Below are positions 1 through 62,760 of a stretch of 62,760 nucleotides of DNA, one piece after another. The notes beneath the pieces are model-generated. The model was not told where the DNA came from. It made no database searches and worked only from the letters and a program-made list of their open reading frames with translations. Origin of the DNA: a virus (Duplodnaviria > Caudoviricetes); the IMG/VR virus record IMGVR_UViG_3300044707_000497, positions 1-62,760 of that record, one strand, 5' to 3'. The translations under genes and the position numbers were made by a program. Numbering within the stretch: position 1 is the first letter of the stretch; every line of letters starts with the position of its first letter.

Positions 1-1834
1 GTGCGTTGAGGTGCGTTGAGGCGTGGATGAAATGGTTTTCGCCTGGGCTTGTCGGAATTGGGCTGCCGGAAGACATCGTGGCGTTCTCCAGCACCGCGAT
101 CTTGAAATCCAACGGCGGGCGAAGGCTCGTCTGCGGAGGGGGCAAGTAACGATCTACGACTTCCTGCCCGAAGCGGCACGCGATGCGATCACGCAGAAGG
201 TTGACGCGGCCCTGCTCATCGAGGCTCCCAAGGATTTGCATAGTCTCATCGACCGCTGCCATACGCATAGAGGGGCTTCCGTAGCCGATGGCGCGGACAG
301 GATCGACCTGTTTGACCTTGAGAATCGCTTCGATTGGGACGCCGCGCTTAACGCAGCGTTTGCGGAACTCCACAGCCTCTTTCCCGCCTGGCTCTAGGGC
401 GGTGTAATCGCGGCGGGCAAGGCGGCGATACACTTCGGTCAGAAGCCGCTTCCACGGGTGGTAAAAAAGATTGATGCTCGCTGAAGAGAGGGTCGCTTCT
501 TTCTGTAACTGCGAACGGACTTCGTATGCCGTGCGGGCTTGGCCGTCAGCGGTCGTGGCGCGGGTCTGGTAGGAACCCGTGTTGTTCTGCATCTGCATCG
601 CCATGTCGGAGATGACGGGGATAATGTTTTGTTGTAAATTTGGGACTGCTTTTTCAACAATCTTGAGCCCTGGCGGGAAGAGTGCGTAGGGGCCGTAGTA
701 GGTGAGCGTCAGGTCATCAAGCGCCCTAGAGGAACTGTCGCTTGGCTGCACAATCAGTGAAGAGGAAAGGAGCGCCCCGTCCACCATGCCGCACCGCAAG
801 CGGTTCAAAACTTGGATGTGCGGATAGATTTTAAAGCCCAGCCCACGGATGCCGTGGTAAGTGCCGTTCCCGACTCCGTAGCAGAAGGTCACGAAGCAAT
901 TCGTAGGTGAGTCGAAGCGGTTCTCCCGCTTGAAAAGAAAGCCTTCTCCTTTATCGAGCGGAGCATCAAGAGGCTCTTGAAGGAAAATCAAATGCGACAC
1001 TTTGCCAGAAAACTCGCGCACCCACATGTGGACAACCTTCACAACCTTGCTCTTGGCTTGCCCGTAAAGGAGGTCGTTGTTTTTCAGCTCGACTTCCAGC
1101 TTCTCCCAGTCGGCGAGGGTCACGGTGGTTTGGTTGGCGTAGCACGCCCGCTGGATGGCGGCGCGGGTTGTCTTCACATCCCACCCCAGTTCCGCTGCGA
1201 CTTCGGGATCGCGGATAAAGGAGTAAAGTTCGTCAGCGCGGTATTCACGGTCAGCGGTTGCTACCTCGATCTCCGATTCATTGGCGCGGGTTGCCCTAGG
1301 GATTCGGAACTCCGAAAGTCCTGCCACGCGGTAGCGCCAGTCCACCTCGTCCTCGAAAAAGGTGATGCCTACTCCGTGCGAAACGAAATAGTCTGAAAGC
1401 CTCTGGTGGTTGAACTCAAACTCACGCCACTCGCGCAGCGTGTGGTGAAACTCCTCGCTGATAATCTCACTCCACTCCGAAGCCTGCTCCGGCGTGCCGT
1501 GGGCGGTCTGCACACGGGCCAGCTTGTCCACAGAGCTTGTGAGGTCGTAGTAGCCTGCAAGAGCCTGCTCCTTGATTGCCGCCGCATCTCCGAAGTCAAG
1601 GTTGGTTCGGTCTGCCTGCCCCATCTCAATTAGATCGTTCGCATTGAATGGGGGGTTCCCGTTGAACATGCCGTCGATCAAAGCGCGGTTGCGGCTGCTG
1701 CCCTCATCGGATTTCTTGATCGCGAGATAGACGGATCGGGCGGCGTCCACCTTCTCAATGCGGCACTTAGGCGCGGCCCCCGTTACAGGGTCTAAGCCTT
1801 TAATGTCGAGTGGGGATTGGCTACTTTCCGGCAT
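1..1834 (-). CDS. Portal (head-tail connector) protein, truncated by the left window edge; absent from the ORF track
   Basis: ATG at 1834 opens a stop-free frame to the edge (~611 codons: MPESSQSPLDIKGLDP...RNRALIDGMFNGNPP...HGIRGLGFKIY...RTAYEV). The RTAxEV motif, size and position in the terL operon fit podovirus portals. Confidence 0.75.
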   Translation of the reverse strand, partial: MPESSQSPLDIKGLDPVTGAAPKCRIEKVDAARSVYLAIKKSDEGSSRNRALIDGMFNGNPPFNANDLIEMGQADRTNLDFGDAAAIKEQALAGYYDLTSSVDKLARVQTAHGTPEQASEWSEIISEEFHHTLREWREFEFNHQRLSDYFVSHGVGITFFEDEVDWRYRVAGLSEFRIPRATRANESEIEVATADREYRADELYSFIRDPEVAAELGWDVKTTRAAIQRACYANQTTVTLADWEKLEVELKNNDLLYGQAKSKVVKVVHMWVREFSGKVSHLIFLQEPLDAPLDKGEGFLFKRENRFDSPTNCFVTFCYGVGNGTYHGIRGLGFKIYPHIQVLNRLRCGMVDGALLSSSLIVQPSDSSSRALDDLTLTYYGPYALFPPGLKIVEKAVPNLQQNIIPVISDMAMQMQNNTGSYQTRATTADGQARTAYEVRSQLQKEATLSSASINLFYHPWKRLLTEVYRRLARRDYTALEPGGKEAVEFRKRCVKRGVPIEAILKVKQVDPVRAIGYGSPSMRMAAVDETMQILGSLDEQGRVNLLRDRIACRFGQEVVDRYLPPPQTSLRPPLDFKIAVLENATMSSGSPIPTSPGENHFIHASTHLNA

Positions 1835-2507
1835 TGTCTTTCTCCTTTTTTGCGGGCTTGTTCATCCATTCAAGTTCCTCAATCACATCCACATTTGCGT
1901 AAACTGCGATCTTCGGGGTCACAGGAACCTTGCCGCCGTGTTGAATAAACTCACTTTGAGTAGCCTCGGGGCGCATCTCGAATCGCATGAGCGAGTGCCA
2001 CGGCTCCCCACCGACGCGGTAGGAAAGCTGACGTATTAAAAGGCTGCGGTGCCACAGGTCAGGCGGGTAAACGCTTGCTCCAAGAAGGCGGGGCGGCTCC
2101 TCTTCCCACTTGCGAGTGCCAGGGTTCCACCCAGGGACAGTCTGGGTCGCGCCCAAGTAAGGCATCTGCTTGGTGCCGTATTCCTGCGCGATTTCCGAAA
2201 GCCAAGAAGACTTTACTGGCACGCTGTCGGCAAACCAATAAAAAGGCTCGTCGTTACCAACGGAATCCAGCCACCGCACGGTATCGGCAAAAAGTTTGTT
2301 CGCGCTGGTGTATTCGTCATCCCCTGTAAAAATATCAGCGTGCGCGAAAGCTCCTTTTAAGATATTTAGAGCCCCCTCCATTTCATAGACTTGGGTGTGC
2401 GGGCCAGCGAGCAAAACATCGTGTCGAGCGCCCCCTTTCAAGGCCAGAATGTGTTTGTAGAGAGGGAGGTGCTTTGGGTTGTAAGGTATAACGAGAAGCA
2501 TCGGCAT
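1821..2507 (-). CDS. Hypothetical protein, possibly glycosyltransferase-like
   Basis: 228 aa, overlaps the portal start. FYWFADSVP...WLSEIAQEY...YLGA...GASVYP loosely recalls GT-A-like phage proteins; function uncertain. Confidence 0.6.
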   Translation of the reverse strand: MPMLLVIPYNPKHLPLYKHILALKGGARHDVLLAGPHTQVYEMEGALNILKGAFAHADIFTGDDEYTSANKLFADTVRWLDSVGNDEPFYWFADSVPVKSSWLSEIAQEYGTKQMPYLGATQTVPGWNPGTRKWEEEPPRLLGASVYPPDLWHRSLLIRQLSYRVGGEPWHSLMRFEMRPEATQSEFIQHGGKVPVTPKIAVYANVDVIEELEWMNKPAKKEKDNAGK

Positions 2508-2509
2508 GG

Positions 2510-7691: not shown

Positions 7692-8717
7692 TCAGAATGT
7701 TCCGGCGTCGATGATGCAGTCTTGGATTTCGGTCAAACCATCACCCACAATGTTGCCATTGAAGGTCACGTCGCCGGAGGCCGAAACTGTGCTGAACGCA
7801 CCTGCGGCGGGAGTCGTGCCGCCGATTGCCATGCCATTGATGGTGCCGCCCGTGAGGGTAGCGCCGGAACTGGCGAAGGTGTTCAGGGTAGCGGTCGAGG
7901 AAGCCGTGAGCGTGGTGAACGCGCCAGCCGCCGCAGTCGTTCCGCCGATTGCAGTGCCGTTGACCGTGCCGCCTGTGATGGCGACCGAGTCGGCTGCCTG
8001 AGTGGCAATCGAGCCGAGACCTAGGTTGGTGCGGGAAGTGGCCGCGTTAGCGAGGTCGGAAAGGTTGCTGGCCTTGGCGAGCTTACCGTCCACCGAAGTC
8101 TTAAACTCGGCGGCGATAGCTACCGTATAGCCAGTGTCAGCGGAGCCTGAAACCGAGATTTCACTGGCCGTTCCGGCAACCGAGCTATCGGTGTTGTCGA
8201 TCTTGTCGATGCCCGAGGAAAGGTTGAAAACGAGCCCGTCATTGGCATTGGCGTAGAACGCAGCAGCAGGGGCAAGGACAAAAAAGCCAGCAGCGGCCAC
8301 TTTGTAGTAATCGCCCGCGTCTTTTTGGGTGAGTGAGGCGAGGTTTGTCGCAGCGCCGGAGGTAGCCCCACCGGAGACGGTGCCAACATAGTTGAAGGCG
8401 CTCCCTAGGGCGTCGATGCGAAGGCCGAGCGCGGTGACTTCGGTGTCTAGGTCGGTCTTACGAACGACATCGGTCGTGCCGGAAGGGGCTGTGGAGACGG
8501 TGGCAGTGGTGAAGTTCTTCTTACCTGTCACCGATTGCTCGGAGCCTTTGTCCACGAACTCGCCCTTGCCCGCCACGGGGATTGCGGAAGTGCCGTTGTG
8601 GATGTAAACTTTTTCATCAACGGAATTTATTGCGATTTGTCCCGCTACCATATCGGAAGGGGCACCTGCCGCGCCGCTCAAACGGCGACGGACTACTTTG
8701 AGATTTGCATTAGGCAT
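7692..8717 (-). CDS. Tail fibre protein
   Basis: GQIAINSVDEKVY adaptor, NLSDLANAATSRTNLGLG, ITGGTVNGTAIGGTT repeats, C-terminal IDAGTF. Confidence 0.85.
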   Translation of the reverse strand: MPNANLKVVRRRLSGAAGAPSDMVAGQIAINSVDEKVYIHNGTSAIPVAGKGEFVDKGSEQSVTGKKNFTTATVSTAPSGTTDVVRKTDLDTEVTALGLRIDALGSAFNYVGTVSGGATSGAATNLASLTQKDAGDYYKVAAAGFFVLAPAAAFYANANDGLVFNLSSGIDKIDNTDSSVAGTASEISVSGSADTGYTVAIAAEFKTSVDGKLAKASNLSDLANAATSRTNLGLGSIATQAADSVAITGGTVNGTAIGGTTAAAGAFTTLTASSTATLNTFASSGATLTGGTINGMAIGGTTPAAGAFSTVSASGDVTFNGNIVGDGLTEIQDCIIDAGTF

Positions 8718-9519: not shown

Positions 9520-12002
9520 AAAACAATACACGAAGCTCGCACACTGTAACTAAAAGTGCTACCGTCCTCTCGAAAAGCTGTAATTCTATCAAAATTGGCT
9601 AGTTCAAACATGCAGGACCCTACAAAAAAGCCTGATGTAGCATATGCCCCCCAAGCATACATAGAATATCTATTAGTAGTTCCATATTTAATAAAAGTAG
9701 CGTTAAAACTTACAAAGTCCGTAGCAGAATTGCTGCTAGCGATATACCCATTCTCAGCGCTGAAATTAGCAACACTGTTACCATTAAACCTAGCGCCGGA
9801 GCTAACGTAACTTGTCAAATTTGCCGTGCTGGAGCCGACCCTGAAATAAATAATAGAGCTTTGATCGGAGCCGGTTAGAGTGACTGCAAAACGAAGATTG
9901 ATAATGTTGGCGTTCGATACCGGAAATATATGGGTATGAGAGCCAGTAACGCCAGTAAAGCCCGAGGAAACGGCGTTGTTTTCATGAACTCTAGGCAATA
10001 AGTTTGTTATTTCTGTATGCGTATGCCCAAGTTGGCTGTAACGAGCGTCTTGTTGTGCTTCCGTCAGACGCATAATTGCCCATGGCGTCCAACCATTTGA
10101 ATGATTTCTATGGCGGACATAAACAGCGTTGCTAGAATTTGAAGGGCCATTCAAATCTAAGTGGCTGTATAGTGTTTGTCTAAGCCAACTACTATTATGG
10201 CCCTGAACAAACCCAATCCAACTTGTATTGTTATTCTGCGCGGGAGGGGAATTTGAAGCGTTAAGCCCAGTATAAAACCCTTGCTGCGTAGCATTGTCCC
10301 AGTTGCTAGTTAAATTATCTTGACTTTCATCCGACAAACGGGTGAGGAGATCGTAAGGAAGTGGGGTTCCGATTGTAATGTCCGAACTGCCGTCAAAAGA
10401 AACGCCATTGATGCTTCTGGCGGTTGTGAGCTTGCCAGCGGTAGTTGCACTGGTTGCGGTTCCAGTCAAATCCGCTGTGATTGTTCCTGCCGAAAAGTTC
10501 CCTAGGGCATCCCTTGCTACAATGGCGCTGACAGTATTGGCGCTGGCCGCTGTGGTGGCAGAGTTCAGCACTTTCCCTGATGTCGAAATCGTGGCGAGCT
10601 TGGTGTCGGCAATCGCAGCGGTGGCATTGATGTCCGCGTCCACAATCACCCCTGCTGTAATTTGAACAGGGATTGTTAAGTTAGCGCCGCCATCGAAAGT
10701 TTGCGCGGTTCCAGTGAGATCGCCGGAGACATTAACATTGCGTGCCGTTTCGAGCTTGGTCGCCGTTGCAGCATTTCCCGTACATGAAGTAGAGGAGCCT
10801 GTCAGGCTTGCGGTGATCGTGCCTGCCGAGAAGTTGCCCGAGGCGTCGCGTTGAACGAGGCTGCTGACTGTGTTAGTCGAGCCATAGGCAACAGGAGTTG
10901 CCAGTAGGCCGTTGCTTACCACGACCGCGCCTGTTCCGGCTGGGGCGGGGCCAGCGGGGCCTTGACCGCCCGTATCGCCCTTGTCGCCCTTGTCGCCTTT
11001 GACGCCTTGCGGGACAGTGAATTTAAGAACTGCGGCGGACGCGGTACCTGTGTTTTCAACAAGAGCGCTCGTTCCTGCCGCTCCAGTTACAGTCTGCCCT
11101 ACAGAAATAGTGGCTAGCGGGCCTTGCGGGCCTCGTATTGGCCCTGTATTTGTCCAAGCAGTGCCGCTCCAGACATACCCATCCCCCGTATCTGAAACCA
11201 CCCATAGGTCGCCTTGAGTGCGGTTGGCGGCAGGAAGTGCGCTAAAAGTAGCAACTGCGCCTTTCAATACGACGCTCGTGCCGTCTTTTCCCGCCACGCC
11301 CTGAATACCTTGCGGGATGGTGAAATTCAGAACGGCGGCAGAGGTCGTGCCGGAGTTTGAGACTGCGGCGTTTGTTCCTGCTGCTCCCGTCGTAGTCGTT
11401 CCGACTGCAATGGTCGCTGCGGTGCCAGTATCGCCCTTGGGGACTGTGAAATTCAGAACGGCGGCAGAGGTCGTGCCGGAGTTTGAGACTGCCGCGTTTG
11501 TTCCTGCCGCGCCTGTCGTAGTTGTTCCGACTGCGAGCGTCGCTGCATCGCCTTTGACACCTTGAGGGATGGTGAAGTTTAAAACGGCGGCGGAAGTTGT
11601 GCCGGAGTTTGAGACTGCGGCATTCGTGCCTGCCGCGCCTGTCGTAGTCGTTCCGACTGCAACCGTGGCTGCTGTTCCGGTATCTCCTTTAGGAACTGTA
11701 AAGTTTAAAACAGCGGCAGAGGTCGTGCCGGAGTTTGCGACTGCTGCGCTTGTCCCTGCCGCGCCTGTCGTGGTCGTGCCGACTGCTACCGTCGCTGCGT
11801 CTCCTTTGTCGCCCTGTTTTCCGGCAGGACCAACTCCGACTTCGACCCACTGCCCGTTGATGTAAAGATACTCGCGCAGGGTTTGAGTATTGGCCCACCG
11901 CGTCCCGAAAGGCGGGTTCACTGGGGCTGTCGCCGCGTAGATCGTATCCCTCGGAGGAGCGGCGTTGAGTTGATTTGTTACAGGGTTAAATAAAAATCTC
12001 AT
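9516..12002 (-). CDS. Long tail fibre with collagen-spaced repeats
   Basis: Repeats AATxAVGTTTTGAAGTxAAVxNSGTTSAAVLNFTxP, ATKLETARN-type fibre motifs, AT-richer C-terminal tip. Confidence 0.88.
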   Translation of the reverse strand: MRFLFNPVTNQLNAAPPRDTIYAATAPVNPPFGTRWANTQTLREYLYINGQWVEVGVGPAGKQGDKGDAATVAVGTTTTGAAGTSAAVANSGTTSAAVLNFTVPKGDTGTAATVAVGTTTTGAAGTNAAVSNSGTTSAAVLNFTIPQGVKGDAATLAVGTTTTGAAGTNAAVSNSGTTSAAVLNFTVPKGDTGTAATIAVGTTTTGAAGTNAAVSNSGTTSAAVLNFTIPQGIQGVAGKDGTSVVLKGAVATFSALPAANRTQGDLWVVSDTGDGYVWSGTAWTNTGPIRGPQGPLATISVGQTVTGAAGTSALVENTGTASAAVLKFTVPQGVKGDKGDKGDTGGQGPAGPAPAGTGAVVVSNGLLATPVAYGSTNTVSSLVQRDASGNFSAGTITASLTGSSTSCTGNAATATKLETARNVNVSGDLTGTAQTFDGGANLTIPVQITAGVIVDADINATAAIADTKLATISTSGKVLNSATTAASANTVSAIVARDALGNFSAGTITADLTGTATSATTAGKLTTARSINGVSFDGSSDITIGTPLPYDLLTRLSDESQDNLTSNWDNATQQGFYTGLNASNSPPAQNNNTSWIGFVQGHNSSWLRQTLYSHLDLNGPSNSSNAVYVRHRNHSNGWTPWAIMRLTEAQQDARYSQLGHTHTEITNLLPRVHENNAVSSGFTGVTGSHTHIFPVSNANIINLRFAVTLTGSDQSSIIYFRVGSSTANLTSYVSSGARFNGNSVANFSAENGYIASSNSATDFVSFNATFIKYGTTNRYSMYAWGAYATSGFFVGSCMFELANFDRITAFREDGSTFSYSVRASCIVL
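11310..11812 (-). repeat. Four tandem ~120-nt coding repeats in the tail fibre gene (diverged copies near 11010-11125 and 13100-13225)
   Basis: Near-identical gtgccggagttt/gcgcctgtcgt blocks repeated at about 120-130 nt spacing. Confidence 0.9.
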
Positions 12003-12691: not shown

Positions 12692-13275
12692 ACTCCTCCT
12701 AGGGCAATCGCCAGTGCCATGACCGATGCTTTGCTTACTTCCCCCTGCCGCCCCATAGGGCCAGCGGGGCCGACGCTGCCACGAGGGCCAGCTAACCCGC
12801 GAGGGCCTTCAGGGCCGAACGGGCCAGGAATGCCTTGCGGGCCTGGGGGGCCAAAATCACCAGGAATGCCTTGAAACCCGCGCTCGCCGCGATCTCCTTG
12901 CAACCCCCTAGGGCCGGGCAAGCCGCGCTCGCCTTGTAACCCGCGAGGGCCTTCGGGGCCTTCGGGGCCTTCGGGGCCGATTGGTCCCCTCGGCCCAACA
13001 ACAGTATCCCCCTTTAGCCCTTGCAAACCGCGTTCTCCCTGCAACCCGCGAAGTCCATCAGGGCCGCGAGGGCCTTCTGGCCCCCTAGGGCCCGCAACGC
13101 CTGATGGAATGGTAAAATTTAAAATCCGGTTGCTCGCCGTGCCGGACTGCGTCACGGAAGCGGTTCCGCCAGCGGTTCCGGTGGTGACGACGCCAACAGT
13201 AATTGTGGCAGCGTCTCCCTTGGGGCCTTGTGGCCCTGTCAAGCCGGAGCCGATGATTTCAATAATGTCGCTCAT
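12688..13275 (-). CDS. Collagen triple-helix repeat protein
   Basis: Long Gly-X-Y tract; C-terminal [10 protein letters not shown] typical of phage fibre anchors. Confidence 0.9.
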
Positions 13276-15416: not shown

Positions 15417-15418
15417 TT

Positions 15419-28465: not shown

Positions 28466-28494
28466 CGGCGCTACGCCAGATATGCGTATAGAAT

Positions 28495-28524
28495 AACCCT
28501 CGGTAGTGGTGCCGAGGGTTTTTT
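28495..28524 (+). terminator. Rho-independent terminator
   Basis: AACCCTCGGTA-GTGG-TGCCGAGGGTT followed by TTTT. Confidence 0.85.
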
Positions 28525-28529
28525 CTTGC

Positions 28530-29000: not shown

Positions 29001-29271
29001 GTGCCTCTACGGGTTTTCAACCCGTATCCCCTGAATCCATAAACCATTGATTCACAGCAAGTTAGCACATCTGCCGCTTTGCTTTGTCCAGCATTGCACA
29101 GCATTTCCAGCGTAGAAAGCCCGTTTTTGCAAAGTTTTCATTGCCCTAGGGCACAAGGGTTTATGGCTACTTTGTTCAAAAGTTAATAACTGGCAATTTT
29201 TGCAGAAAAGCCGTAGATTGGCAAGGCAAAGCCTTGAAAATGAGTAGCTTGCAAAGATTCCGTATAGAGAA

Positions 29272-37723: not shown

Positions 37724-39286
37724 ATGCCAACTGCAACATTAAGAATACGACGCGAAGTTGATGACCACCACATCGGCTACCGCACCAAGGGCACACTGCC
37801 CGAAACCTACGACTTGCGCTGGGACAAAGCATCTCAGACGGGTTGCTGGCGCTACGACCACGCATCCAAGCGCCATGTCATATCAATTAGCCCTGATGCC
37901 TACAATGTCATTGCTGACAAGGGTCTGACCCGATGCCAGACCGAGCTATACAAGAACATCTACGAGCATGAGGCATCGCACTCGCTCTACACCACCAAGC
38001 ATCTCAAAGACCTTGGCGACACGCTCAAGGCCGAGAAGATTCCGTGGCGGTTGATGAACCTCTTCGAGGATGTCCGCATCGAGCGTCTGTGGTGGGTTCA
38101 CCAGCGATCCAAGAAACACTGGCGCTGGACTCGCTGGACCAAACATCCCGCCGACATCATGACGGTGACTCCGACCCAGTTGCTTTTCCGTTTCAAGTGC
38201 GGCGATGTGGGGCGCAGACCCCCTAGGGCGCTGATGTCGTATCGTGCGCTCCCGTTCTTTGACAAGGTCTGGAACTACTTCAACCGTATCGTGTGCCTTG
38301 CCCGTATCAAATGCACCACAAACGAGTTGCTACCTGTCCTCAAAGACTGGCTCAAGGATTTCCCTGAGACTGGTGACGACACCATTGAGGCAGAGGGCGG
38401 CGATGGAACTGGTGATCTGGCCGAGGCTGTCGCCAAGGATGGCGGCAAGGTCGAGGACGTCAAGGGCGGTGCCCCAGCCCCCGCGCCTGCCCCTGTTGAC
38501 GACCCCTCTCACGCCAAGGGTGGCGCTACTGACGAAGGTGTCGCACCGAAGTCTATGATCCGCAACGAGCCCGTTGTTGCGCGTCAGGTTGCGAAGATGC
38601 TCGCCAGTGCGTTCCGCGCCTTCGGCCCGACCAAGGCACCCACATCCAACCCGTCAAAGCGACTCAACCTCAAAGGTCTGTTGCGCGGTGACTGGAGCCT
38701 CCCGTTTGTTGGCAAGACGATTGCCGACAACGGTGCCCCATACATCTCGCTGATCTTTGACGGCAGCGGCTCGATGTCCGGTCAGTTGGCTTACCTCGAC
38801 CGCGAGAGGCGCAACGAGTGCCGCGCCGCCGATGCTGGCCGCGTCTTGGTTCGCGCCCTATCCGACCTCGCATCCAAGGGTCACATCCAAGGCAAGGTTT
38901 ACTTGTCCGGCTGTCTCGGAGTCATGGCCGAGTTCCCACTTCCTGTTAAGGATGTGAAGAACTTCGCTGTCCTCTGGGGCAACGATTGCAGTGAGGGCAT
39001 CGGCATCACGTTGAGCCCAACTGCTACGACGGGGTATAAGTCAGCGTTCCACGAGATCACCTCGAAGTCCAAGCTCGCTATCGTTTACACCGACGGCGAG
39101 ATCACCGACGCGCCGGTCAATCGCGCTGCGCTCAAAGCCAAGGGGCTTTACACCCTAGGGATTTGCTGCGCCTCCCGCGACAAAACTCCGTGTCTCAGGA
39201 AGCACTTCGATTCCTTCATCAGCCGCGACTCGCTCTTCGGTCTTGCCGATGCGCTTGTCCGGTTCCTCCGCAGCCGCAAATTCTAA
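37724..39286 (+). CDS. HExxH metallopeptidase-like plus vWA domain protein (CobT-like partner)
   Basis: HEASH, NLFEDVRIE, MIDAS DGSGS, YTDG. Confidence 0.88.
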   Translation: MPTATLRIRREVDDHHIGYRTKGTLPETYDLRWDKASQTGCWRYDHASKRHVISISPDAYNVIADKGLTRCQTELYKNIYEHEASHSLYTTKHLKDLGDTLKAEKIPWRLMNLFEDVRIERLWWVHQRSKKHWRWTRWTKHPADIMTVTPTQLLFRFKCGDVGRRPPRALMSYRALPFFDKVWNYFNRIVCLARIKCTTNELLPVLKDWLKDFPETGDDTIEAEGGDGTGDLAEAVAKDGGKVEDVKGGAPAPAPAPVDDPSHAKGGATDEGVAPKSMIRNEPVVARQVAKMLASAFRAFGPTKAPTSNPSKRLNLKGLLRGDWSLPFVGKTIADNGAPYISLIFDGSGSMSGQLAYLDRERRNECRAADAGRVLVRALSDLASKGHIQGKVYLSGCLGVMAEFPLPVKDVKNFAVLWGNDCSEGIGITLSPTATTGYKSAFHEITSKSKLAIVYTDGEITDAPVNRAALKAKGLYTLGICCASRDKTPCLRKHFDSFISRDSLFGLADALVRFLRSRKF

Positions 39287-45292: not shown

Positions 45293-48200
45293 AGCGGAGT
45301 GTCCTTGGCTCGTTTGACGGCGGCGTCGGCTGCTTTGATGCGATCCTTGGGAGCGATCTTCTTCGCGGCATCGCTCGGCTCGTATTTCTTGTAGCGCCCG
45401 CTACGAATCATCGCGATGTCCTCCTTGCCGATGCGATTGGCTTTAAGAATTTCCTCGGCCTTCTTCGGAGAGATTTTGCCCAGCCCGATAGCCGCCAGCA
45501 CATCGTCGCGGAAATCAGCGGTGAGGCGGTAGGTCGCGTCGTTGGCTCGTTCGTAGGCATCGGCAATCTGGTCGGGCGAGCGAGTGCCCTTGGAGTTAAA
45601 CTCGCGGGTGAAGAGGGATGAGGCATCGCGGATGTCGCGGCTGAACTTTGAAGCCTTGAATCCAAGAGCCGCTTCGACATCGACCTCGGTGATGCGTTGC
45701 CCTGCTGCCAAGCCGAGGAGTTCGTTGGCGAGATTGTAGGCGCGTCCGCTGTCGCTCACAGCCCCCGCTCCTGCCTTAATGATTCGGCCTGCGGTGTCAA
45801 ATGCCCCAGGGCTGAAAGCCTTCCAAATCCGCTCGGTGGTTTTCGCTGCAATGTTTGCTCCGGTGTCCTGCGGGTTGTAAATCGGGCGTCCGGTGGCGTC
45901 TTGGTTGCGGAGGACATCGACAATCGCTCCGCTGACCAACTGCTCGCTCTTGAATGGACGGATCAATTCGCTTGCCGCCTCCATTGCGCCTCGGGTAATG
46001 CGCTCCATTGCTTCCGCGTCGTCGCGGGCTGTGAGCGAACGCACAAAAGCGCCAGATGCTTTTTTCCAGTAGTCGTAAGGATCGAGGAAACTCACATCCA
46101 CATAGCTCACCTTGCCGTCCTTGTTTTTAGTCAAGAGAAGCTGCGAGTTCTTCTGCCAGTTAGGCAGGAAGCGGCGAAGGCGCTCTTCGTCGTCTCGTCC
46201 AATGCCCGCCAGCGCCATCATGCCAGTTGCCACTGCTCCAGGGCCGAATGCCGCAAACACCATCCCGCGAGCCCTTTTCCAGCCGATAGCCTGTAGCTCT
46301 TTATTGCCTGTTCGATTACCCTCGGTGATCTCGTAGCGGGCGAGCTTCATCAGGTTGATCGAGGTGCGAATGACTTCGGTAGTGAAAGTGATGAATGGAG
46401 CTACAAACGGGAACGCCTTGACCTTATCAAGTGCGGCGGGAGAGAGGCTGTAGGTCGGGCGGATGTCGCGAACGATCTTTGCCGCATGATCTTTGACCTG
46501 TTCGGGGCTCCAGCCTGGCATCGCTTTCGTGTATTTATCGACCTCGGCCATGTAGCCCATGACCTTCCAGAAGTCGTCACTTGAAGCGTAGGCTTTCTGT
46601 GCGGTATCCCATACTGCTCCGGCTGATTTTTGCAGCTTTCCAATCAAGTGATTTGAGAACTGCTCTTCAGTCTTGGAGAAGCGTTTTGCCTCCATGAGTT
46701 GACCAAGCATGTTTCCTACAATCGACTCGCCGATGACACCACGGCGAACGAGTTCCTGCATCTCGTTCATCATCGCCTTTCGGAAATCCGCTTCTTTTGG
46801 GTAGGCGTTAAAGGCGCTGCGGAAGCTCATGTTGAAGGCTGTGCCCATGCGGTCTTTGAGCTTCGGAATGTCGGAGAACCCGAAGTTTCCTGCTGCCACA
46901 TCAAAGAGAATGTTGCCGAGGTTGTTTCGGACTTGCGCGACGGGGGACAGCACGGTCTTCGCCGCCATCGACCAACCCGTGACCTTCGAGAGCGCCCGCA
47001 CCCAAGCGTAATTGTCGGAGACTCCGTTCTGTGGAAACATCTGGTAGAGCGCCTCGACGAGGAGCTTGTCGCCGTGAAGCCCTGCAAGGGGAGCCAGTGA
47101 TTTATTGTTGTCAGAGGAAATTTTCAGGTAGCCCCTAGGGCGGTCTGCTTCAGGGCCGTTGTAGAGCCAGCCTTCTTTTAGGCCCAACCCGCGAAGATCG
47201 GAGAGGAACTGGTGGTTGGCTACGAGAGAGGACATCTTCATCACGCTCTTGGCGTAGTTGATCGTAGGGTCTTCATAGCGGCCCCAGAGGGCTTGAATCT
47301 CGGGGGAGATGTTGCCGCGAGTGTCGAAAATCGAGAGGTCTTTTTGCCCAGGGATGCGCCCGCGCAAGATCACGCTGCCCATGCCGTCTTCGCCGATAGC
47401 GAGGAGGTCGTCTATGGCTTTGTCGATCTGCTCCTGCTTGGCTGTGCCCTTGGTCTGCGCCTGCGCGTCGGCCTTGGAAATAAACCCGCCTTCGCTCTCG
47501 GTCTGGCGGATGAGTTCGGCGGCGTTGCGTTGCTCGATGTTGCGCTTGATAAGACGCTCGGCGGCCTGCATGACCTTGGTGTTTTCCCGCACCTGCTTGG
47601 CCCACTTTTCATTGTCGAAGATTTCGTAGGAGCGGTGGAGGTAGATGCCGAGATTAGCTTCCACGGTCGCAGCCATGCTGGGATCAAGGATGCCCGAATC
47701 TTTGAGCATCGCTGAGTAGTAGGCGATATGTTCGTTCATCTCGCTGACCGCATCGGCTACATTGGCTGGGAGCGCGGCGAGCGCGGCCCGTTGCTTGACC
47801 TTGAATGCCTCGCGGTTCTTGGCGAGGTGGGCGGCTTCCAATGTGTTTGCCTCCTCCTCGTCGATCTCGCGCATCCGGCGCACTTCGGAACGCTGGGCTT
47901 GGGTGAGCGGGTTGTCGAGGTTGCCGAGTGCCGTATTCATTGTCTCGGTTGAGACTTCGACCCCTGACTTCTTGGCGGCTTTGACGGCGCTAACGAGGCG
48001 CGTCGAAAGAGTGTCGATCACGCGGGCGGCGGCTGTGATCTGCTGGCGCGATGCCCGCCACTTGTCGCCCGCCTGTTTGTCGAGCTTGCCATCGGGCGAA
48101 AGCGCCCCGCCTGCCGTGTAAGTCCCGCCGTTAAATGTCGTCTTCGACTCCGCTCCCGTGAGCTTGGCGATCATCTTCATCGCCTCGCCTGCGGGTGACA

Positions 48201-56729: not shown

Positions 56730-58610
56730 TTATTTATTAAGAAAACCAACATTTCCCATGCCCCTAATGTTTTGAGAGCGGGGTCTCAGGATGTCCCCCC
56801 AAGGGTTCGACTCATCGTTCGGCGCTATTTTGGCGGCAGGAGTGGATTGCTTGGAAGGGAGACCTCTCATAACAAGCCCAACATTTTCCATACCTTTAAC
56901 GCTTTGGGTGCGGGGGCTCGTAATGCCCTCCCAGTTTTGAAGGAGTGGGTTTGTTTCATCCGCCGCTTCGACTGGGGCAGGTTGAGGCGCAGCAGATTGC
57001 TTGGCAGCGGGCTTCCCTAGCCCCAAAAGTTCTTTCCCTAATCTATGCCCTAGGGGGATTTGTTTACGAAGCTCTTTTATTTGTTTAAGCCGTTCTTTGT
57101 TGAGGCTGGCGTCACCCCTAAAATTAGGATACCCCGTGTCTCGGACTTCTTGCTCCAGCTTGCGAATCTGAGCATAAACCGGAGCTAGATTCTCGTTTAA
57201 TTCTTCTTTAGTCGCAGCGTATTCTTCTCGTTGAGCTTTATCGGGGCTTACCGCATACCCACCTGTCCACATCTTGTCTAATTTTTCTTTGGCAGAAGAC
57301 GCAGTGGTTAAGTTAGCTTTAATTTCTTCTGAGACTGAAACTTTTGAGGTGTCAGTTTTTTGGGCAGCCTTCGACTCGGCAGGCTTTTCAGGTTCTTGCG
57401 TTTTCTGGACTAAGCTATGAGTGATCCACTGGGGGCCTTGTTTACCATTAGCAACATAGGAGGTGACAACATTAGGGTCTTCCGTAGCGTAAACAACTGT
57501 CGGCTTGCCCCCGATAGCCATCTTGAACGGTAGATTTTTTGTTTCTTTGTTCCGTAACCAAGCATCCCGCTCTGCGCTGTCTTTGAATGAGGGGGCATTC
57601 TTAATCGCTATGGCCTGAATCCTGTTCATATTTTCAGCAATCCGCGTGTCAAACTGATCTGCTGTCACTCCATCATAGGTATCCAGCCCCATATTTTTAG
57701 CTTCTTCAAGCTCTTGGTTTTGTCTAAAGTAGCGATTTAGCTGAGCCCCAAGTTTGCTCGCCCCTTGCGGAAGTTGCATCGCCGCGTCTCTTTCCGCTCC
57801 TAATTTCTGCAACGCCATTTCATCTTCGTCAGTTCGATTTTCTTTCTTGGAAATGGCGTCGATCAAACTTTGTGCTTTTGTAGCCCTTTCAATCGAGTCA
57901 TCTTCCTTGGTCTTAGCGGCTTTAACCGACGACGCCCAAACTAGCTTATCCGCTTCAAAGGCTTGGTCCCAGTCCATGTCTTTTGGCAGGGTAATTTCCT
58001 GACCGTCAACTTTTATGGTGGCTCCCTCTCGTCGGATTCGGTCAACGCGGTCGATTTCTTCCGCCGTGCGATACCCGCCTCCAGGGCGCGTTCCGAGCCT
58101 TTCCACGAGGTTGCGATCCAAGTTCCGTTCTTCAAATAGATCACCCATTCGGGAATAAACCATTCCAATAAACTGTTCATCAAGGGCTTTTTCTCTTGCT
58201 ACTTCCCTTGCGTTAGCGCCGGTTCTTCCGTTTTTTAACCCTTTCACTTGGCTTATGATCCCATACCCTTCAGAAATAATTTCCCCTAGGGTGAGTTCTT
58301 TTGGGGGTTCTTGCTGTTCTTGCGGCGCAGGGGTTTTTTTCGGAGGTTCAAAGCTGTCGAATACATTCCCAGTCTCCTCGGCCTTTAATTGCCGTGAAGT
58401 AGAGTTTAATTCCGACCGTGTTCTAGGGTCTTCGAGCGGGGCTATTTTTGAGTCCGGCACAAACGAGCCTTCAGCGGACGTATTTAATTTTCCGGCGTCT
58501 GTCTTTAACATCTCATCTCTGCGAAGTTGAGAGGTTTGAGCGGGTAGATTGTCAAAAACCGATCCCCTTTCGAGGTCGGTATTAAATTGGTCAGCGAGAT
58601 TCCAAGCCAT
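56730..58610 (-). CDS. Probable internal virion/ejection protein
   Basis: 626 aa, charged and helical; immediately upstream of the giant gene. Confidence 0.6.
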   Translation of the reverse strand: MAWNLADQFNTDLERGSVFDNLPAQTSQLRRDEMLKTDAGKLNTSAEGSFVPDSKIAPLEDPRTRSELNSTSRQLKAEETGNVFDSFEPPKKTPAPQEQQEPPKELTLGEIISEGYGIISQVKGLKNGRTGANAREVAREKALDEQFIGMVYSRMGDLFEERNLDRNLVERLGTRPGGGYRTAEEIDRVDRIRREGATIKVDGQEITLPKDMDWDQAFEADKLVWASSVKAAKTKEDDSIERATKAQSLIDAISKKENRTDEDEMALQKLGAERDAAMQLPQGASKLGAQLNRYFRQNQELEEAKNMGLDTYDGVTADQFDTRIAENMNRIQAIAIKNAPSFKDSAERDAWLRNKETKNLPFKMAIGGKPTVVYATEDPNVVTSYVANGKQGPQWITHSLVQKTQEPEKPAESKAAQKTDTSKVSVSEEIKANLTTASSAKEKLDKMWTGGYAVSPDKAQREEYAATKEELNENLAPVYAQIRKLEQEVRDTGYPNFRGDASLNKERLKQIKELRKQIPLGHRLGKELLGLGKPAAKQSAAPQPAPVEAADETNPLLQNWEGITSPRTQSVKGMENVGLVMRGLPSKQSTPAAKIAPNDESNPWGDILRPRSQNIRGMGNVGFLNK

Positions 58611-60477: not shown

Positions 60478-61572
60478 CTAGGCTACTCCTTTCAGATAAA
60501 CTTGTGTCCAAGAAAGCAACCTCCCTTGGAGGAAAAGAAACCCCGCGCAATTTGCAGGGATGCCGAGCGCGATTGCAGCGGCAGCGGTATAGATAGAAGG
60601 GTTTGGCATAATGTTTTTGCCTGCGGCGTGGAGGAACTGGGTGATCTCTTGGATTTTTGTGTGAAGGTCCGAGCGGTGTTTCGCGAGCCAGCCGTCCACT
60701 TTTACCCAGAGCGGGTCGGGCTCACCTCTATGAAATGAATTTCCCCAGCCTGGGATTCTCAAACCGTCTTCAAACATGAGCTTGACGCCTTGCAGCGAGT
60801 GGCTTGACGCAAGTATCTCGTAGGATTGTTCCAGTGGCGCGTGCGTTCCCCCTAGGGTTAGCAGACCAGAGGCGATACTGTTTGTCCACGAGCCGTTGCC
60901 CGCCGAGCAAGCTGCGACAGCGTTGGAAGAAATGTTCCCACGGAAGGCGCTTTCAGCGTGCGCTTCTAAAACCAACTGCAACAACTCTTCCTCCCGCTCG
61001 CTCAGAGGGGAAACGCGCCCTGGGATAGCCGCCCCACCGCGTAGTGCCCCGTGGATGAACTGAGGCTCCATCTGCACGTTGAGGCTGCGGAGAACTTCAA
61101 ATTGTTCTTTTGGAAACTCAACGCCGCCAAGGCAATGATGCCAGATTTTTTCAACCACCTCGGACTTGTCCAAGTTTTTGAAGTTCACTACAAGCGCGAG
61201 CCCTTTAAGCTCCTCCAAGGCTTCAAGTGTGCGATCTACAAATTCATCAAGCGGAAGCTCTTCCACGGTCTTGCCGGACACTTTTGCAAACGACTCTAAA
61301 ACAGAATCTTGGTCGCGCTCCACAATGACCACACGGAGGCTCGGCATCAACTCAAGCAACTCTTTTGCTTTCAACGCCGCGCCGCAATCCGAATTGCCTA
61401 CATACTTTGCCCCAGCGGACATAACCTCGGCCATGCCTTTCGCGTCCAACCCTCTATTGCTAAGTTCATGGTGGCAAAGTGAATCTCCCCTCGTAAAGAG
61501 GTTTGCCAACCAAGCCGTGCGGGAGCGGGGTAGCCCCAGGATTAGAAAATTTCGCTCGGATTGGATTAGCAT
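60478..61572 (-). CDS. Sulfotransferase-like P-loop domain fused to a degenerate citrate-synthase/citryl-CoA-lyase-fold domain
   Basis: FLILGLPRSRTAWLANLF N-terminus; HAE..GNISS, LGGTHAP, RIPGWGN, PDP, IMPN, LFLQGR..W in the C-terminus; ATG at 61572. Confidence 0.75.
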   Translation of the reverse strand: MLIQSERNFLILGLPRSRTAWLANLFTRGDSLCHHELSNRGLDAKGMAEVMSAGAKYVGNSDCGAALKAKELLELMPSLRVVIVERDQDSVLESFAKVSGKTVEELPLDEFVDRTLEALEELKGLALVVNFKNLDKSEVVEKIWHHCLGGVEFPKEQFEVLRSLNVQMEPQFIHGALRGGAAIPGRVSPLSEREEELLQLVLEAHAESAFRGNISSNAVAACSAGNGSWTNSIASGLLTLGGTHAPLEQSYEILASSHSLQGVKLMFEDGLRIPGWGNSFHRGEPDPLWVKVDGWLAKHRSDLHTKIQEITQFLHAAGKNIMPNPSIYTAAAAIALGIPANCAGFLFLQGRLLSWTQVYLKGVA

Positions 61573-61597
61573 AACCGTGTATTTATTACACCATACC

Positions 61598-62760
61598 CTA
61601 GCGCATGGCAAGGATTGATCTGTTGTGAACGCCAAAAACTTGTGACTTGAAGTATTGCTGCGTCATCTGGTCGGCGAGCAATTTCTTGCCTGCGTCAAAC
61701 GAGCCTGCCTTACCTTGGGTAAGGATAGCCAGAGCGGCCTGCGACACGGCTTCGTAGTTGTTCAGATACATGGAGTCTGTATCCGCCAGATGCGGCACGA
61801 ATCGGCGCTTGGCGAGGTAACGAACAAGGGTCTCCTTGTTTTCTTGCGGCACTGAAACAAAGTATCTGCGCTTCGTGATTCCGTCATCAGGATCGACAGC
61901 CTCTCCTCGGTCGCTGAACCCGCTGCGCCAAGGCTCCTCAGTAGTCTTGATGCCTGTCCCTCCACGCATGTATTCAGCGAAGCGGTCGTGGACTGGACGG
62001 GGATCACCGTCGAAGGTCACAAACAAGACTGTCTCGACCTCGCGGGGCAGGAATACCTCGCCGGATTGCTCCAGGGTAAAAGAGTAGTCTGCGACTGTGC
62101 CGACCCACTTGCCGCTGTTCATCAAGGCTTCCTCGGCGCTCGTCACAGCGCGTTTGATTGCGTTGTTTGAGAAAGTCAACGCCCCATCGAACCCCAATCC
62201 AATGCGCCCCCAGTAGTAGCCAAAGCTGTTCGGAGAGCCAAGCGAAAGCTCCATGCGAAGGGTGCGTCGGAAAGTTTCGTCGTTTGCCACGACATCGCGC
62301 TCGATTAAATCCAACGCGGATTTCTTGAGCCCTAGGGAAAGTTCCGACTGTCCTTCCAGAGCGGCCAGGTAACTTTCCACCAAGAGACGCTTTTGCTCGT
62401 AGGTTGCTGGCGGGGTTGGAATGTCATCGTCATCGCTACGAGCCACAAATTTTTGATGTGAGATCGCGTCGCTCACCGCTTGGTTTAGCAGCTTCGTCAT
62501 GCGCGAAGTCGGAACCTTGAGCCCCGTGGGGAGTTCATTGTGCAACCGCCCGACCTCCCCGATTACGGCTTTGCGGGACTTTCCTACCACAGCGATAATA
62601 TCTCTTTCAATCAAGTCCAGCGCCTCTTTTTTGAGCGCCATGGCAGGCTCAACTGCCGCTTGGGCTGTGGCGATGTAGCTCTCAACGAGTTTCTTCTTTA
62701 CCTCAAAAGAGACTGTCAGGCTCGGCCCGTCCAACTCCTCCCGCCTTTGTAAAAACTCCA
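61598..62760 (-). CDS. Tail (tubular/adaptor-like) structural protein, 5'-truncated by the window edge
   Basis: Frame stays open to 62760; internal duplication KKKLVESY...LKKEALDLIERD / KRLLVESY...LKKSALDLIERD. Confidence 0.6.
   Translation of the reverse strand, partial: EFLQRREELDGPSLTVSFEVKKKLVESYIATAQAAVEPAMALKKEALDLIERDIIAVVGKSRKAVIGEVGRLHNELPTGLKVPTSRMTKLLNQAVSDAISHQKFVARSDDDDIPTPPATYEQKRLLVESYLAALEGQSELSLGLKKSALDLIERDVVANDETFRRTLRMELSLGSPNSFGYYWGRIGLGFDGALTFSNNAIKRAVTSAEEALMNSGKWVGTVADYSFTLEQSGEVFLPREVETVLFVTFDGDPRPVHDRFAEYMRGGTGIKTTEEPWRSGFSDRGEAVDPDDGITKRRYFVSVPQENKETLVRYLAKRRFVPHLADTDSMYLNNYEAVSQAALAILTQGKAGSFDAGKKLLADQMTQQYFKSQVFGVHNRSILAMR

Follow-up and report, generated by a model that had tools for sequence, protein, structure and literature searches.

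We called 76 open reading frames (ORFs), covering 92.5% of the window, which is the whole 62,760-nt stretch of DNA analyzed here and a complete virus record. Scattered through its genes is an eight-letter palindrome, CCCTAGGG, that a sequence-only reading of this DNA had spotted by eye at 16 places or more. An exact search found 16 copies at precisely those positions (Table 1), or 0.25 per kb, and a count of all 8-mers ranked the word first. As that reading also held, nearly all copies are in genes and every module has them: 15 of the 16 fall inside called ORFs, with no intergenic preference, and all three gene blocks carry the word at 0.21–0.32 per kb. The half-sites CCCTAG (35 copies) and CTAGGG (28 copies) account for a further 19 + 12 = 31 occurrences outside the full palindrome, close to the 30 or so estimated by eye.

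Table 1. Copies of CCCTAGGG in the window, with the enclosing ORF (strand in parentheses), reading frame, and state in aligned relatives.
Position	Location	Frame	State in relatives
1294..1301	ORF 2-1834(-)	Pro-Arg, ATC CCT AGG GCA	kept in G411, G412, G002 (3/3 aligned)
8403..8410	ORF 7692-8717(-)	Leu-Gly, GCC CTA GGG	kept in G001
10500..10507	tail-fibre-like ORF 9516-12002(-)	Leu-Gly	G001 = GCCGTTTG
12906..12913	collagen-like tail-fibre ORF 12688-13275(-)	Pro-Arg	
13083..13090	collagen-like tail-fibre ORF 12688-13275(-)	Pro-Arg	
20049..20056	helicase-nuclease ORF 18602-21010(+)	Leu-Gly, ACC CTA GGG	kept in G001 and, of 11 aligned close relatives, in 9 (other 2 = TCCTAGGG); motif-less G004 = CCCTCGGC, G005 = CTCTCGGT
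29144..29151	1.5-kb stretch 28466-30035 without convincing ORF		
34236..34243	ORF 34189-34806(+)	Pro-Arg	
34593..34600	ORF 34189-34806(+)	Pro-Arg	
38221..38228	ORF 37724-39286(+)	Pro-Arg	
39153..39160	ORF 37724-39286(+)	Leu-Gly	G001 = CCCTCGGC, synonymous
47133..47140	3812-aa virion-protein ORF 45289-56727(-), sole copy	Pro-Arg	
57048..57055	ORF 56730-58610(-)	Leu-Gly	
58284..58291	ORF 56730-58610(-)	Leu-Gly	
60850..60857	ORF 60478-61635(-)	Leu-Gly	G001 = GCCCAGAG
62330..62337	ORF 61598-62734(-)	Leu-Gly	kept in G411 and G001

Base composition predicts 1.20 copies (order-0 Markov model), in agreement with the single copy estimated earlier, and models of order 1, 2, and 3 predict 0.51, 0.45, and 0.42. 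The excess over the second-order model, which was not split by reading frame, is about 35-fold. None of 100 dinucleotide-preserving shuffles of the window reached 16 copies (mean 0.46, maximum 2). The expectation climbs to 3.0 at order 4 and to 13–15 at orders 5 and 6, because the 6- and 7-mers of the latter models are mostly fragments of CCCTAGGG itself. The tetranucleotide CTAG is under-represented, with 92 copies observed against 243, 136, and 126 expected at orders 0, 1, and 2; 16 of the 92 sit within the full palindrome. CTAGG and CCTAG occur 41 and 49 times against 32–36 expected, 16 of each inside CCCTAGGG, and outside it neither is above expectation. Two near-miss words are also raised, namely CCCTAGAG (7 copies) and CCCTAGCG (4 copies).

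A word this common in genes might arise from chance or from codon, dicodon, or peptide composition. The high-order Markov expectations would fit such an origin, as would the two sites within one collagen-like gene. However, those models are made of pieces of the word, and orders 0–3 give at most 1.2 copies. Synonymous-codon shuffling within genes (1000 runs) gave a mean of 0.66 copies and a maximum of 4, against 15 observed in ORFs, and codon-order shuffling (1000 runs) gave a mean of 0.34 and a maximum of 3. For the Leu-Gly frame, a dicodon Markov chain predicts 2.2 copies against 8 observed. The enrichment thus withstands correction for oligomer, codon, and dicodon composition, which the sequence-only reading had named as the test that could refute it. 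Eight of the in-ORF sites are read as NCC-CTA-GGG (Leu-Gly) and seven as NNC-CCT-AGG-G (Pro-Arg). It had also been proposed to look for sites in all three frames; both stop-free frames are indeed used, but the third is closed to the word by a TAG stop. The codons involved are rare in the window (CTA, 8.3% of Leu; AGG, 10.4% of Arg), and CCCTAGGG encodes 8 of the 33 [SPTA]-Leu-Gly tripeptides and 7 of the 23 x-Pro-Arg-[VADEG] motifs. Furthermore, all 32 relatives, each assembled independently, show the enrichment again. The excess is not a product of base, oligomer, codon, or dipeptide composition, and the exact count, Markov models, shuffles, and recurrence across the clade together refute a coding artefact, whose probability we regard as negligible.

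Sequences flanking the 16 copies show no relation to one another, save for a C that follows the word in 9 of them, and CCCTAGGG is not part of a longer repeat. We rejected a dispersed repeat element of the MITE or REP type, as there is no conservation beyond the core and motif-less relatives differ by substitutions, not insertions. The word arises via point substitutions, synonymous and amino-acid-changing alike; at 60850, the state in G001 means that an amino-acid change is involved. A packaging signal, as once suggested, is not supported: a pac or cos site would be expected singly or in a cluster near the terminase, and the 16 sites are spread evenly over the gene blocks, with a spacing in the window indistinguishable from random.

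We graded relatives by terminase identity into 32 loci at ≥74%, 15 at 70–72%, and 22 at 35–43%. CCCTAGGG is present in all 32 loci of the closest group, with 108 copies in 443 kb against 3.4 expected (order 3), and in 0 of the 15 and 0 of the 22 loci of the other two. As for whole records, G001 carries 28 copies in 72.9 kb, G002 carries 12, and G003 carries 14; neither G004 nor G005, both complete sister genomes, has any. The density is 0.24–0.83 per kb in nine relatives and just 0.05 in G415, and the word is the top dispersed 8-mer in the window, G411, G002, G973, G001, and G003. It marks one clade: every sampled member has it, while no sampled member of the sister clades does. Tail-fibre genes g6–g14 are present in motif-bearing loci only (0 of 37 motif-less loci), and a second family motif, GGTTATTA, is common to the motif-bearing genomes and motif-less G005. 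Therefore, CCCTAGGG tracks the host-range module and not the core phage machinery. Because the motif split follows phylogeny, this agreement with the tail-fibre module does not count as an independent line of evidence.

Conservation in related phages, a check that had been proposed alongside the palindrome, was assessed in nine genome pairs by comparing retention of CCCTAGGG with the baseline for all 8-mers of the same alignments. Sites were retained in 4 of 5 cases between G411 and G002 (baseline 0.12), 8 of 9 between G001 and G003 (0.40), 3 of 7 between the window and G001 (0.12), and 2 of 2 between the window and G002 (0.12). Retention was above baseline at p < 0.05 in 7 of the 9 pairs, with few sites per pair and pairs that are non-independent, and was not significant for G001 and G414 (6 of 9 vs 0.49) or for G003 and the window (1 of 5 vs 0.13). 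Within those limits of few sites and non-independent pairs, diverged relatives retain CCCTAGGG sites at a higher rate than they retain 8-mers on average.

The same phage has shed most other palindromes. In the window, 33 of the 64 palindromic hexamers are missing, with 189 copies observed against 990 expected overall, an extreme form of the restriction-site avoidance known from phages. GTAC occurs 3 times against 243 expected, and GATC is normal (209 vs 243). Only five hexamer palindromes, CCTAGG among them, are still at or above expectation. Avoidance can explain tolerance of the word at most, but not its 35-fold excess or its conservation. Avoidance profiles vary widely across the motif-bearing genomes (GTAC, 3 copies in the window, 75 in G002, and 55 in G973), and the hosts of these phages are therefore not uniform.

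Outside this clade, the word is iterated in a few Hymenobacteraceae. G495 has 3302 copies in 5.6 Mb (0.59 per kb), and G419, which contains a locus (L148) recorded as Hymenobacter bucti CGMCC 1.15795, has 943 copies in 6.2 Mb. Most of the 151 Hymenobacteraceae genomes sampled have 0–30 copies, a lineage-specific pattern among related species. In 200 kb of G495, CCCTAGGG is the top 8-mer (105 observed vs 3.8 expected); 72 copies are in ORFs against 2.3 under synonymous shuffling, and the other 33 are intergenic, more than expected from the 10% of the DNA that ORFs leave uncovered. The only bacteria found at a HIP-level density are nearly without GATC (24 and 1 copies vs about 700 expected), and given the normal GATC count of the window, they are unlikely hosts of its phage. 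An unrelated provirus, G971, resembles the motif-rich Hymenobacteraceae genomes in its GC of 0.61 and its lack of GATC, and carries 16 copies in 44.8 kb (0.36 per kb) as its top dispersed 8-mer. In two methylase families tested, G495 and G419 have none in common: PF00145 was matched in G419 but not in G495, and PF01555 in G495 but not in G419. The Vsr model (PF03852) had no match in either genome; both it and the C5-methylase model PF00145, which had no match in G495, were matched in control genomes. No cyanobacterium in three sets (401 genomes, 151 overlapping the first set, and 48) reaches the phage density, the maximum being 446 copies in 3.3 Mb (0.135 per kb). Additionally, the unrelated complete phage G969 has cyanobacterial HIP1 24 times against 0.1–0.5 expected, which shows that phages carry HIP-type words.

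HIP1 is GCGATCGC, with variants GGGATCCC, CAGGCCTG, and TCGATCGA in cyanobacterial genomes (PMC5861425, PMC4390886). Xu et al. 2018 (PMC5861425) set HIP1-type words apart by enrichment of >16-fold and about 0.2 copies per kb or more, with a Markov model of second order split by reading frame. On their measures for octamer palindromes, CCCTAGGG behaves in the same way: its density in the window is 0.25 per kb, its enrichment is about 35-fold with a model not split by frame, it is enriched in both frames without TAG (8 + 7 sites) and is not explained by codon preference, and its sites are conserved in 7 of 9 pairs, though with few sites and non-independent pairs. Like HIP1, it is an eight-letter palindrome that is rich in GC and has an AT step at its center, is found at 0.25–0.8 per kb inside genes in every permitted frame, is held between relatives above background, and is lineage-specific, separate lineages having separate words. 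The label of a HIP1-like dispersed signal given to it earlier is apt. However, the word differs and does not occur in the main text of PMC5861425 or PMC4390886; one frame is closed to it by TAG; and its carriers are a phage lineage with genomes of 63–73 kb and, as a separate case, a few Hymenobacteraceae, not a cyanobacterial chromosome. HIP1 has a reported kb-scale periodicity, and the spacing of CCCTAGGG is indistinguishable from random, with 16–28 sites too few to assess such a period. Unlike HIP1 as treated by Elhai 2015 (PMC4390886), CCCTAGGG has no cognate methylase among the 76 proteins of the window (Pfam, PHROGs), and a PF00145 and PF01555 search gave no methylase shared by G495 and G419. 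In short, CCCTAGGG is a genuine iterated palindrome of HIP type at the level of DNA, and one lineage of uncultured freshwater lake phages maintains it.

What maintains it could be intrinsic to the phage. CCCTAGGG would then be bound by a dimeric protein of the phage's own, serving for example to organize the genome, in replication, in recombination, or to protect phage DNA, and word and protein would have co-evolved in the lineage without regard to the host. The phage density (0.25–0.83 per kb) tops every sampled bacterial genome except G495, and the word persists over sub-clades with differing restriction-avoidance profiles, presumably in differing host strains. Two transition variants, CCCCAGGG and CCCTGGGG, are enriched over synonymous shuffling in the G001 sub-clade (23 vs 5.2 and 12 vs 1.9), and 8 of 21 CCCCAGGG copies in G001 lie in the frame where TAG would be a stop, a pattern that would suit a reader accepting CCCYRGGG. 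The window also encodes candidate DNA-handling proteins, including the helicase-nuclease (18602-21010), a PD-(D/E)XK/RusA-like protein (18016-18357), and an HTH protein (26677-26925). However, conservation of the CA/TG variants does not exceed baseline (8/17, 8/16, and 2/10), and apart from the tail-fibre genes, no gene was found in all motif-bearing and no motif-less relatives: ORFs g2, g21, and g23 have homologues in 4, 10, and 29 motif-less loci, and the HTH and sigma genes are absent even from G001. Furthermore, the word is iterated in bacterial chromosomes and provirus G971 that have no protein detectably shared with this phage. We hold a phage-encoded reader to be doubtful. A neutral origin is improbable in our view. 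Here, biased repair or damage would make the word without selection, through deamination of 5mC in CCWGG-type sites, correction of the very-short-patch kind, or some other context bias. One C-to-T substitution, at the inner C of CCWGG, turns either CCCCAGGG or CCCTGGGG into CCCTAGGG, and aligned sites of the G001 sub-clade show five cases in which these three forms replace one another. The one-off words CCCTAGAG and CCCTAGCG are raised in the window; a methyl-directed repair ratchet has been proposed for HIP1 (Elhai 2015, PMC4390886). Yet the supposed precursors are not enriched in the window (2 + 2 copies), CCCTAGGG sites are retained above baseline while CA/TG forms are not, and several sites need amino-acid changes; half are read as Leu-Gly, for which the precursor would have to undergo a Pro-to-Leu change. 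The deamination scar offered by the sequence-only reading is not supported, given these points as well as the lack of a flank-independent CTAGG/CCTAG excess, of a methylase among the proteins of the window, and of a PF00145 or PF03852 match in G495, the richest genome.

Alternatively, the word could be a host DNA-uptake or recombination-hotspot sequence spread by biased uptake or repair and acquired by a temperate phage as a prophage. The Neisseria DUS, the USS of Haemophilus and other Pasteurellaceae, and Chi are short, lineage-specific words that occur hundreds to thousands of times per genome, inside genes and in resident prophages too. DUS and USS densities span a range that takes in the 0.59 per kb of G495. 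The lineage-specific distribution among related species, the intergenic excess in G495, the presence of the word in provirus G971, and a tyrosine-recombinase-like protein in the window (15683-16882; PHROG integrase, E = 1.8e-18) fit as well. However, only PHROGs yielded the integrase call, Pfam giving no match at E ≤ 0.001, and searches of contigs of the sampled genomes and of five motif-rich genomes turned up no prophage of this phage family. To our knowledge, known uptake sequences and Chi sites are all asymmetric, and orientation bias, the usual test, is inapplicable to a palindrome. DUS, USS, and Chi are tied to known machinery (ComP, RecBCD/AddAB), but nothing ties CCCTAGGG to competence or end-processing, and we consider such a drive quite unlikely.

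The best reading, to which we assign a probability of about 45%, is that CCCTAGGG serves as a signal in DNA, similar to HIP, that is linked to a system of the host cell. A dimeric, sequence-specific host-cell factor would read the word, with a methylation-linked repair or a "handling/self" system as leading candidates. Because such a factor would read it, DNA living in cells that have the factor would gain and keep the word, through selection or biased repair. CCTAGG may be the one GC-rich hexamer palindrome that goes unpunished by the hosts' restriction systems, and the phage could afford CCCTAGGG because those systems leave CCTAGG alone. More tentatively, HIP-type palindromes may not be peculiar to cyanobacterial chromosomes, and this freshwater phage lineage may possibly keep CCCTAGGG by selection during infection, the word being a mark of "handling" or "self" that some machine of the cell or the phage reads.

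The role of highly iterated palindromes has been an open question since HIP1 was described. The present analysis provides an octamer other than HIP1 with the same statistical behavior, a phage lineage that holds this word while shedding nearly all other palindromes, and carriers outside the cyanobacteria, one of them the genome with the Hymenobacter bucti CGMCC 1.15795 record, whose close relatives are without it. The contrasts between carrier and non-carrier species, and between motif-bearing and motif-less sister phages, could expose the gene responsible. If the word is a signal kept by selection, a 70-kb genome with 16–28 sites would be the smallest natural system for a recoding test of palindrome function, and if it is imposed by the host, it would be a new host-prediction marker for uncultured phages.

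All 16 copies of the 8-letter palindrome CCCTAGGG counted in a sequence-only reading of the window were present where it had placed them, and the word is the most frequent 8-mer of the window. Markov models of orders 0, 1, 2, 3, and 4 predict 1.2, 0.51, 0.45, 0.42, and 3.0 copies, respectively, and 100 dinucleotide shuffles of the window gave a mean of 0.46 and a maximum of 2. That orders 5 and 6 predict 13–15 copies reflects only the 6- and 7-mers they use, most of which are pieces of CCCTAGGG itself. The inner hexamer, CCTAGG, is preceded by C in 19 of 27 cases and followed by G in 21 of 27. The 16 copies have unrelated flanking sequence, except for a C directly 3′ of the word in nine of them, and CCCTAGGG is therefore not part of a longer repeat. 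There is no regular spacing of the word in the window or in its 72.9-kb complete relative G001 (coefficients of variation of 0.79 and 0.84), nor any departure from random placement. CTAG, noted earlier as usually depleted in bacteria, is depleted in the window as well, with 92 occurrences against 126–243 expected.

Fifteen of the 16 copies lie within ORFs, in agreement with the coding density of the window, and are read as NCC-CTA-GGG (eight copies) or NNC-CCT-AGG-G (seven copies); the third frame is closed to the word because TAG would be read there. CTA makes up 8.3% of leucine codons and AGG 10.4% of arginine codons in the window ORFs. Of the 33 [SPTA]-Leu-Gly and 23 x-Pro-Arg-[VADEG] peptides, the word accounts for 8 and 7, respectively. 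When synonymous codons were permuted gene by gene (1000 runs), the mean was 0.66 copies and the highest count 4; with codon order permuted instead, the mean was 0.34 and the highest count 3. A dicodon chain predicts 2.2 copies for the Leu-Gly frame. The sequence-only reading had allowed that the enrichment might disappear after correction for oligomer and dicodon composition; as the codon-shuffle and dicodon controls fall far below the observed count, the enrichment persists.

The likeness to HIP1, the highly iterated palindrome of cyanobacteria, was also borne out, as CCCTAGGG agrees with HIP1 in abundance, enrichment, frame usage, and conservation as laid out in the main text of Xu et al. 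2018 (PMC5861425). Unlike HIP1 as described in the main text of Elhai 2015 (PMC4390886), no methylase association was found for it, and its carrier here is a phage rather than a cyanobacterial chromosome. CCCTAGGG is absent from the main texts of both papers; the tables that supplement Xu et al. 2018 (PMC5861425) cover all octamer palindromes per genome and may include counts for it. Literature searches found no use of the word as a genome signal (primers, oligonucleotides, and other uses made up the best-ranked matches), no mention of it among the matches listed when it was combined with palindrome, genome, and methyltransferase, nothing related by title for CCTAGG with Hymenobacter, and no report of phage-borne HIP-type words by title or abstract opening. 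Within that scope, neither CCCTAGGG as a signal in genomes nor phage-borne HIP-type words turned up in earlier reports.

The window spans a full IMG/VR virus record (62,760 bases) of the linear class with a CheckV completeness of 89%. In our working model of the genes, 76 ORFs form three strand blocks and take up 92.5% of the DNA. Proteins were named using PHROGs and Pfam, and neither identified a DNA methyltransferase among the 76. Megablast with 20 kb of the window found no cultured relatives; in tblastn searches for cultured relatives, the terminase gave two weak matches, the polymerase reached only 25–28% identity, and ORF g1 had no match. Judged from these comparisons, the phage has no close cultured relatives. 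Sequencing runs containing at least 0.2 of a 9-kb stretch of the window are labeled lake water or plain metagenome. A tRNA-Met (CAT) called by both ARAGORN and Rfam (55 bits) at 54715–54788 (−) sits within the uninterrupted 3812-aa ORF on the same strand; tRNA-Met occurs elsewhere in the sister genomes G004 and G005 and is lacking in the relatives G001, G002, and G003. The 1.5-kb stretch 28466–30035, which follows the sigma-like gene, lacks any ORF over 90 aa, gave no Rfam hit reaching the gathering score, and contains one copy of the word.

Table. Features named in the window.
Feature	Position	Strand	Basis
Large terminase	13638-15437	-	PHROGs/Pfam
Tyrosine-recombinase-like protein	15683-16882		PHROGs/Pfam
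RusA/PD-(D/E)XK-like nuclease	18016-18357		PHROGs/Pfam
Helicase-nuclease	18602-21010		PHROGs/Pfam
Family-A DNA polymerase	21906-23654		PHROGs/Pfam
Primase region	window		PHROGs/Pfam
Sigma-70-like protein	27971-28465		PHROGs/Pfam
ArdC-N-like protein	35340-35750		PHROGs/Pfam
Collagen-like tail fibres	window		PHROGs/Pfam
Endolysin	window		PHROGs/Pfam
HNH protein	window		PHROGs/Pfam
Virion protein, 3812 aa	45289-56727		PHROGs/Pfam

Short palindromes are otherwise purged from this genome to an extreme degree. Of the 64 palindromic hexamers, 33 are absent from the window, and the total is 189 against 990 expected. Among tetramers, there are 3 GTAC and 29 ACGT (243 expected each), and 105 CCGG (243–309 expected). 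The only hexamer palindromes at or above expectation are AAATTT, TTGCAA, TTTAAA, TCGCGA, and CCTAGG; CCTAGG is the sole GC-rich one tolerated, and is thus the core on which the word is built. The purged set differs among relatives: G001 has no ACGT or GTAC, yet 64 CGATCG and 43 CCGCGG, and CGCG and GCGC are scarce in family member G973.

Searching IMG/VR with the terminase yielded 69 related loci. All 32 loci with at least 74% terminase identity carry CCCTAGGG, with 108 copies in 443 kb against 3.4 expected (order 3), and it occurs in none of the 15 loci at 70–72% identity or the 22 at 35–43%. Whole records tell the same story, with 28 copies in G001, 12 in G002, 14 in G003, and none in G004 and G005, two complete sister genomes. 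Further family records have 10–15 copies each, G415 having only 2, and G973, among the matches listed in a paired-motif scan of IMG/VR, has 15 in 18 kb. CCCTAGGG is the top dispersed 8-mer in the window, G411, G002, G973, G001, and G003. In the sister clades, the top alternative palindromes are merely two- to threefold enriched. One candidate, TTTCCAAG of G005, proved to be a tandem collagen-like repeat within a single gene. G004 (L078–L081) has its own dispersed asymmetric 8-mer, GTCCCAGA, with 25 copies on both strands against ~2 expected; these are intragenic and in both orientations.

Aligned relatives show that substitutions create the sites: position 20049 carries the word in G001, CCCTCGGC in G004, and CTCTCGGT in G005. 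Of the 11 close relatives that align there, 9 have an identical site, and at other sites amino-acid changes are involved. Between diverged genomes, the word is retained more often than 8-mers in general in the same alignments (for example, 4/5 against 0.12, 8/9 against 0.40, and 3/7 against 0.12), with p < 0.05 in seven of nine genome pairs and not in the other two, the pairs being non-independent and the numbers small. The description of CCCTAGGG as a genuine iterated palindrome at the DNA level, specific to its lineage and retained, is well supported, with a probability of about 0.9.

In a sub-clade of G001, G003, G413, and G414 (L074–077, L211–213, L219–222), two transition variants, CCCCAGGG and CCCTGGGG, also occur in excess, with 22 and 14 copies in G001 against 2 and 2 in the window, whose own sub-clade is without them. 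Under synonymous shuffling of G001, 23 CCCCAGGG were seen against 5.2 expected and 12 CCCTGGGG against 1.9. CCCCAGGG often lies in the frame in which TAG would stop translation (8 of 21 in G001), and a collagen-like gene accounts for some of these copies. They swap with the TA form at aligned sites in five cases; conservation above the 8-mer baseline was not found for them.

The second most over-represented dispersed 8-mer of the family, GGTTATTA, occurs in the window, G001, G002, G003, and motif-less G005 (both strands: 13 in the window, 24 in G001, and 16 in G005, for ~1 expected), and G004 carries the variant GGTTATGA. In G001 it is mostly intergenic, often downstream of TTGGTTGTT, and it probably serves the phage as a promoter or regulatory element. 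Another word of the window, GTCTTTGA, was rejected as a promoter since it is mostly intragenic without common downstream sequence. The tail-fibre genes g6–g14 are confined to motif-bearing loci (5–25 of 32, against none of the 37 motif-less ones). No other gene is both widespread in motif-bearing genomes and absent from those without the motif. Because GGTTATTA is shared with motif-less G005 and the tail-fibre genes are confined to motif-bearing genomes, CCCTAGGG may follow the host-range module rather than the core machinery. As this division runs along phylogenetic lines, the association is suggestive only.

We surveyed bacterial genomes by pattern, in samples of the collection: 401 cyanobacterial genomes of the phylum around G009, 151 of one order, and 48 of another, as well as 401 genomes of the phylum of G419 (Hymenobacter bucti, locus L148) and 151 of its family. 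Only two genomes stood out, both Hymenobacteraceae: G495, with 3302 copies (0.59 per kb over 5.6 Mb), and G419, with 943. The maximum elsewhere in the 401-genome sample of that phylum was 69, most of the 151 family members had 0–30, and cyanobacterial samples reached at most 0.135 per kb. True alternative HIPs appeared in the samples, such as GGGATCCC in G282 (4099 copies in 3.0 Mb), so the survey was able to detect such genomes; CGGCGCCG in G132 (54 copies in 43 kb) is another alternative iterated palindrome from the survey. In G495:C1:1-200000 (L237–L246), CCCTAGGG is the commonest 8-mer (105 against 3.8 expected); 72 copies fall within ORFs, where synonymous shuffling gives 2.3, and 33 lie in the non-coding 10% of the DNA. 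G419:C1:1-200000 (L247–L256) behaves similarly. CCTAGG occurs 259 times in the G495 stretch and ~260 times per 200 kb in both genomes; GATC is nearly absent (24 in the 200 kb of G495, for about 718 expected, and 1 in that of G419, for about 700). G495 had no match to the Vsr or C5-methylase families, the two genomes have no methylase in common in the two families searched (C5 and N6/N4), and no shared Vsr candidate was found.

A search of genome contigs for a host by paired motifs gave at most 4 copies per 8 kb among the matches listed. The cyanobacterial matches are not a dispersed word; they belong to a hairpin-type repeat common to filamentous cyanobacterial MAGs (L091, L099, L104, L105, L112, L113, L126, L128, L141), in which two copies of CCCTAGGG lie 28–29 bases apart, each at the center of a longer palindrome. 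No prophage of the family was found by terminase in genome contigs or in five motif-rich Hymenobacteraceae genomes.

The paired-motif scan of IMG/VR returned, among the matches listed, two viruses unrelated to the family. In G971, classed as a provirus (GC 0.61, no GATC), CCCTAGGG is the top dispersed 8-mer, with 16 copies over 44.8 kb, and short stretches of the record are near-identical to G495. G969 (L389–L391), a complete 43-kb phage, has HIP1 as its top dispersed 8-mer (24 copies against 0.1–0.5 expected) and a modest excess of CCCTAGGG (12 against 2.7–3.4). G969 also lacks AATT (0 for 114 expected), contains very few CGCG and GCGC, shows marked excesses of CCCGGG (73), CCTAGG (57), GGTACC (53), and CCATGG (40), and contains a word around CTCCAGGGTCT with 30–35 occurrences.

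As to mechanism, we tentatively favor, at somewhat under even odds, that a system of the host cell would read the word, because it behaves identically in some bacterial chromosomes and a resident provirus, because it tracks the tail-fibre module, and because a phage-specific reader was not found among the genes compared. No shared methylase emerged from G495 and G419, which speaks against such a system, as does the density of the word in the phages, higher than in nearly all sampled genomes. That density would instead fit a protein encoded by the phage as the reader, which we consider unlikely. Neutral biased repair or deamination producing the word is more doubtful still, an uptake- or Chi-type drive slightly more so again, and an artefact is hardly credible.

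Bacteria of the G495 and G419 type are unlikely hosts of this phage, since these, the only HIP-level bacteria in the samples, avoid GATC and the phage does not. Reading by the host cell nevertheless remains our preferred explanation, and the findings in G971 and G969 show that viruses do carry iterated palindromes typical of particular hosts.
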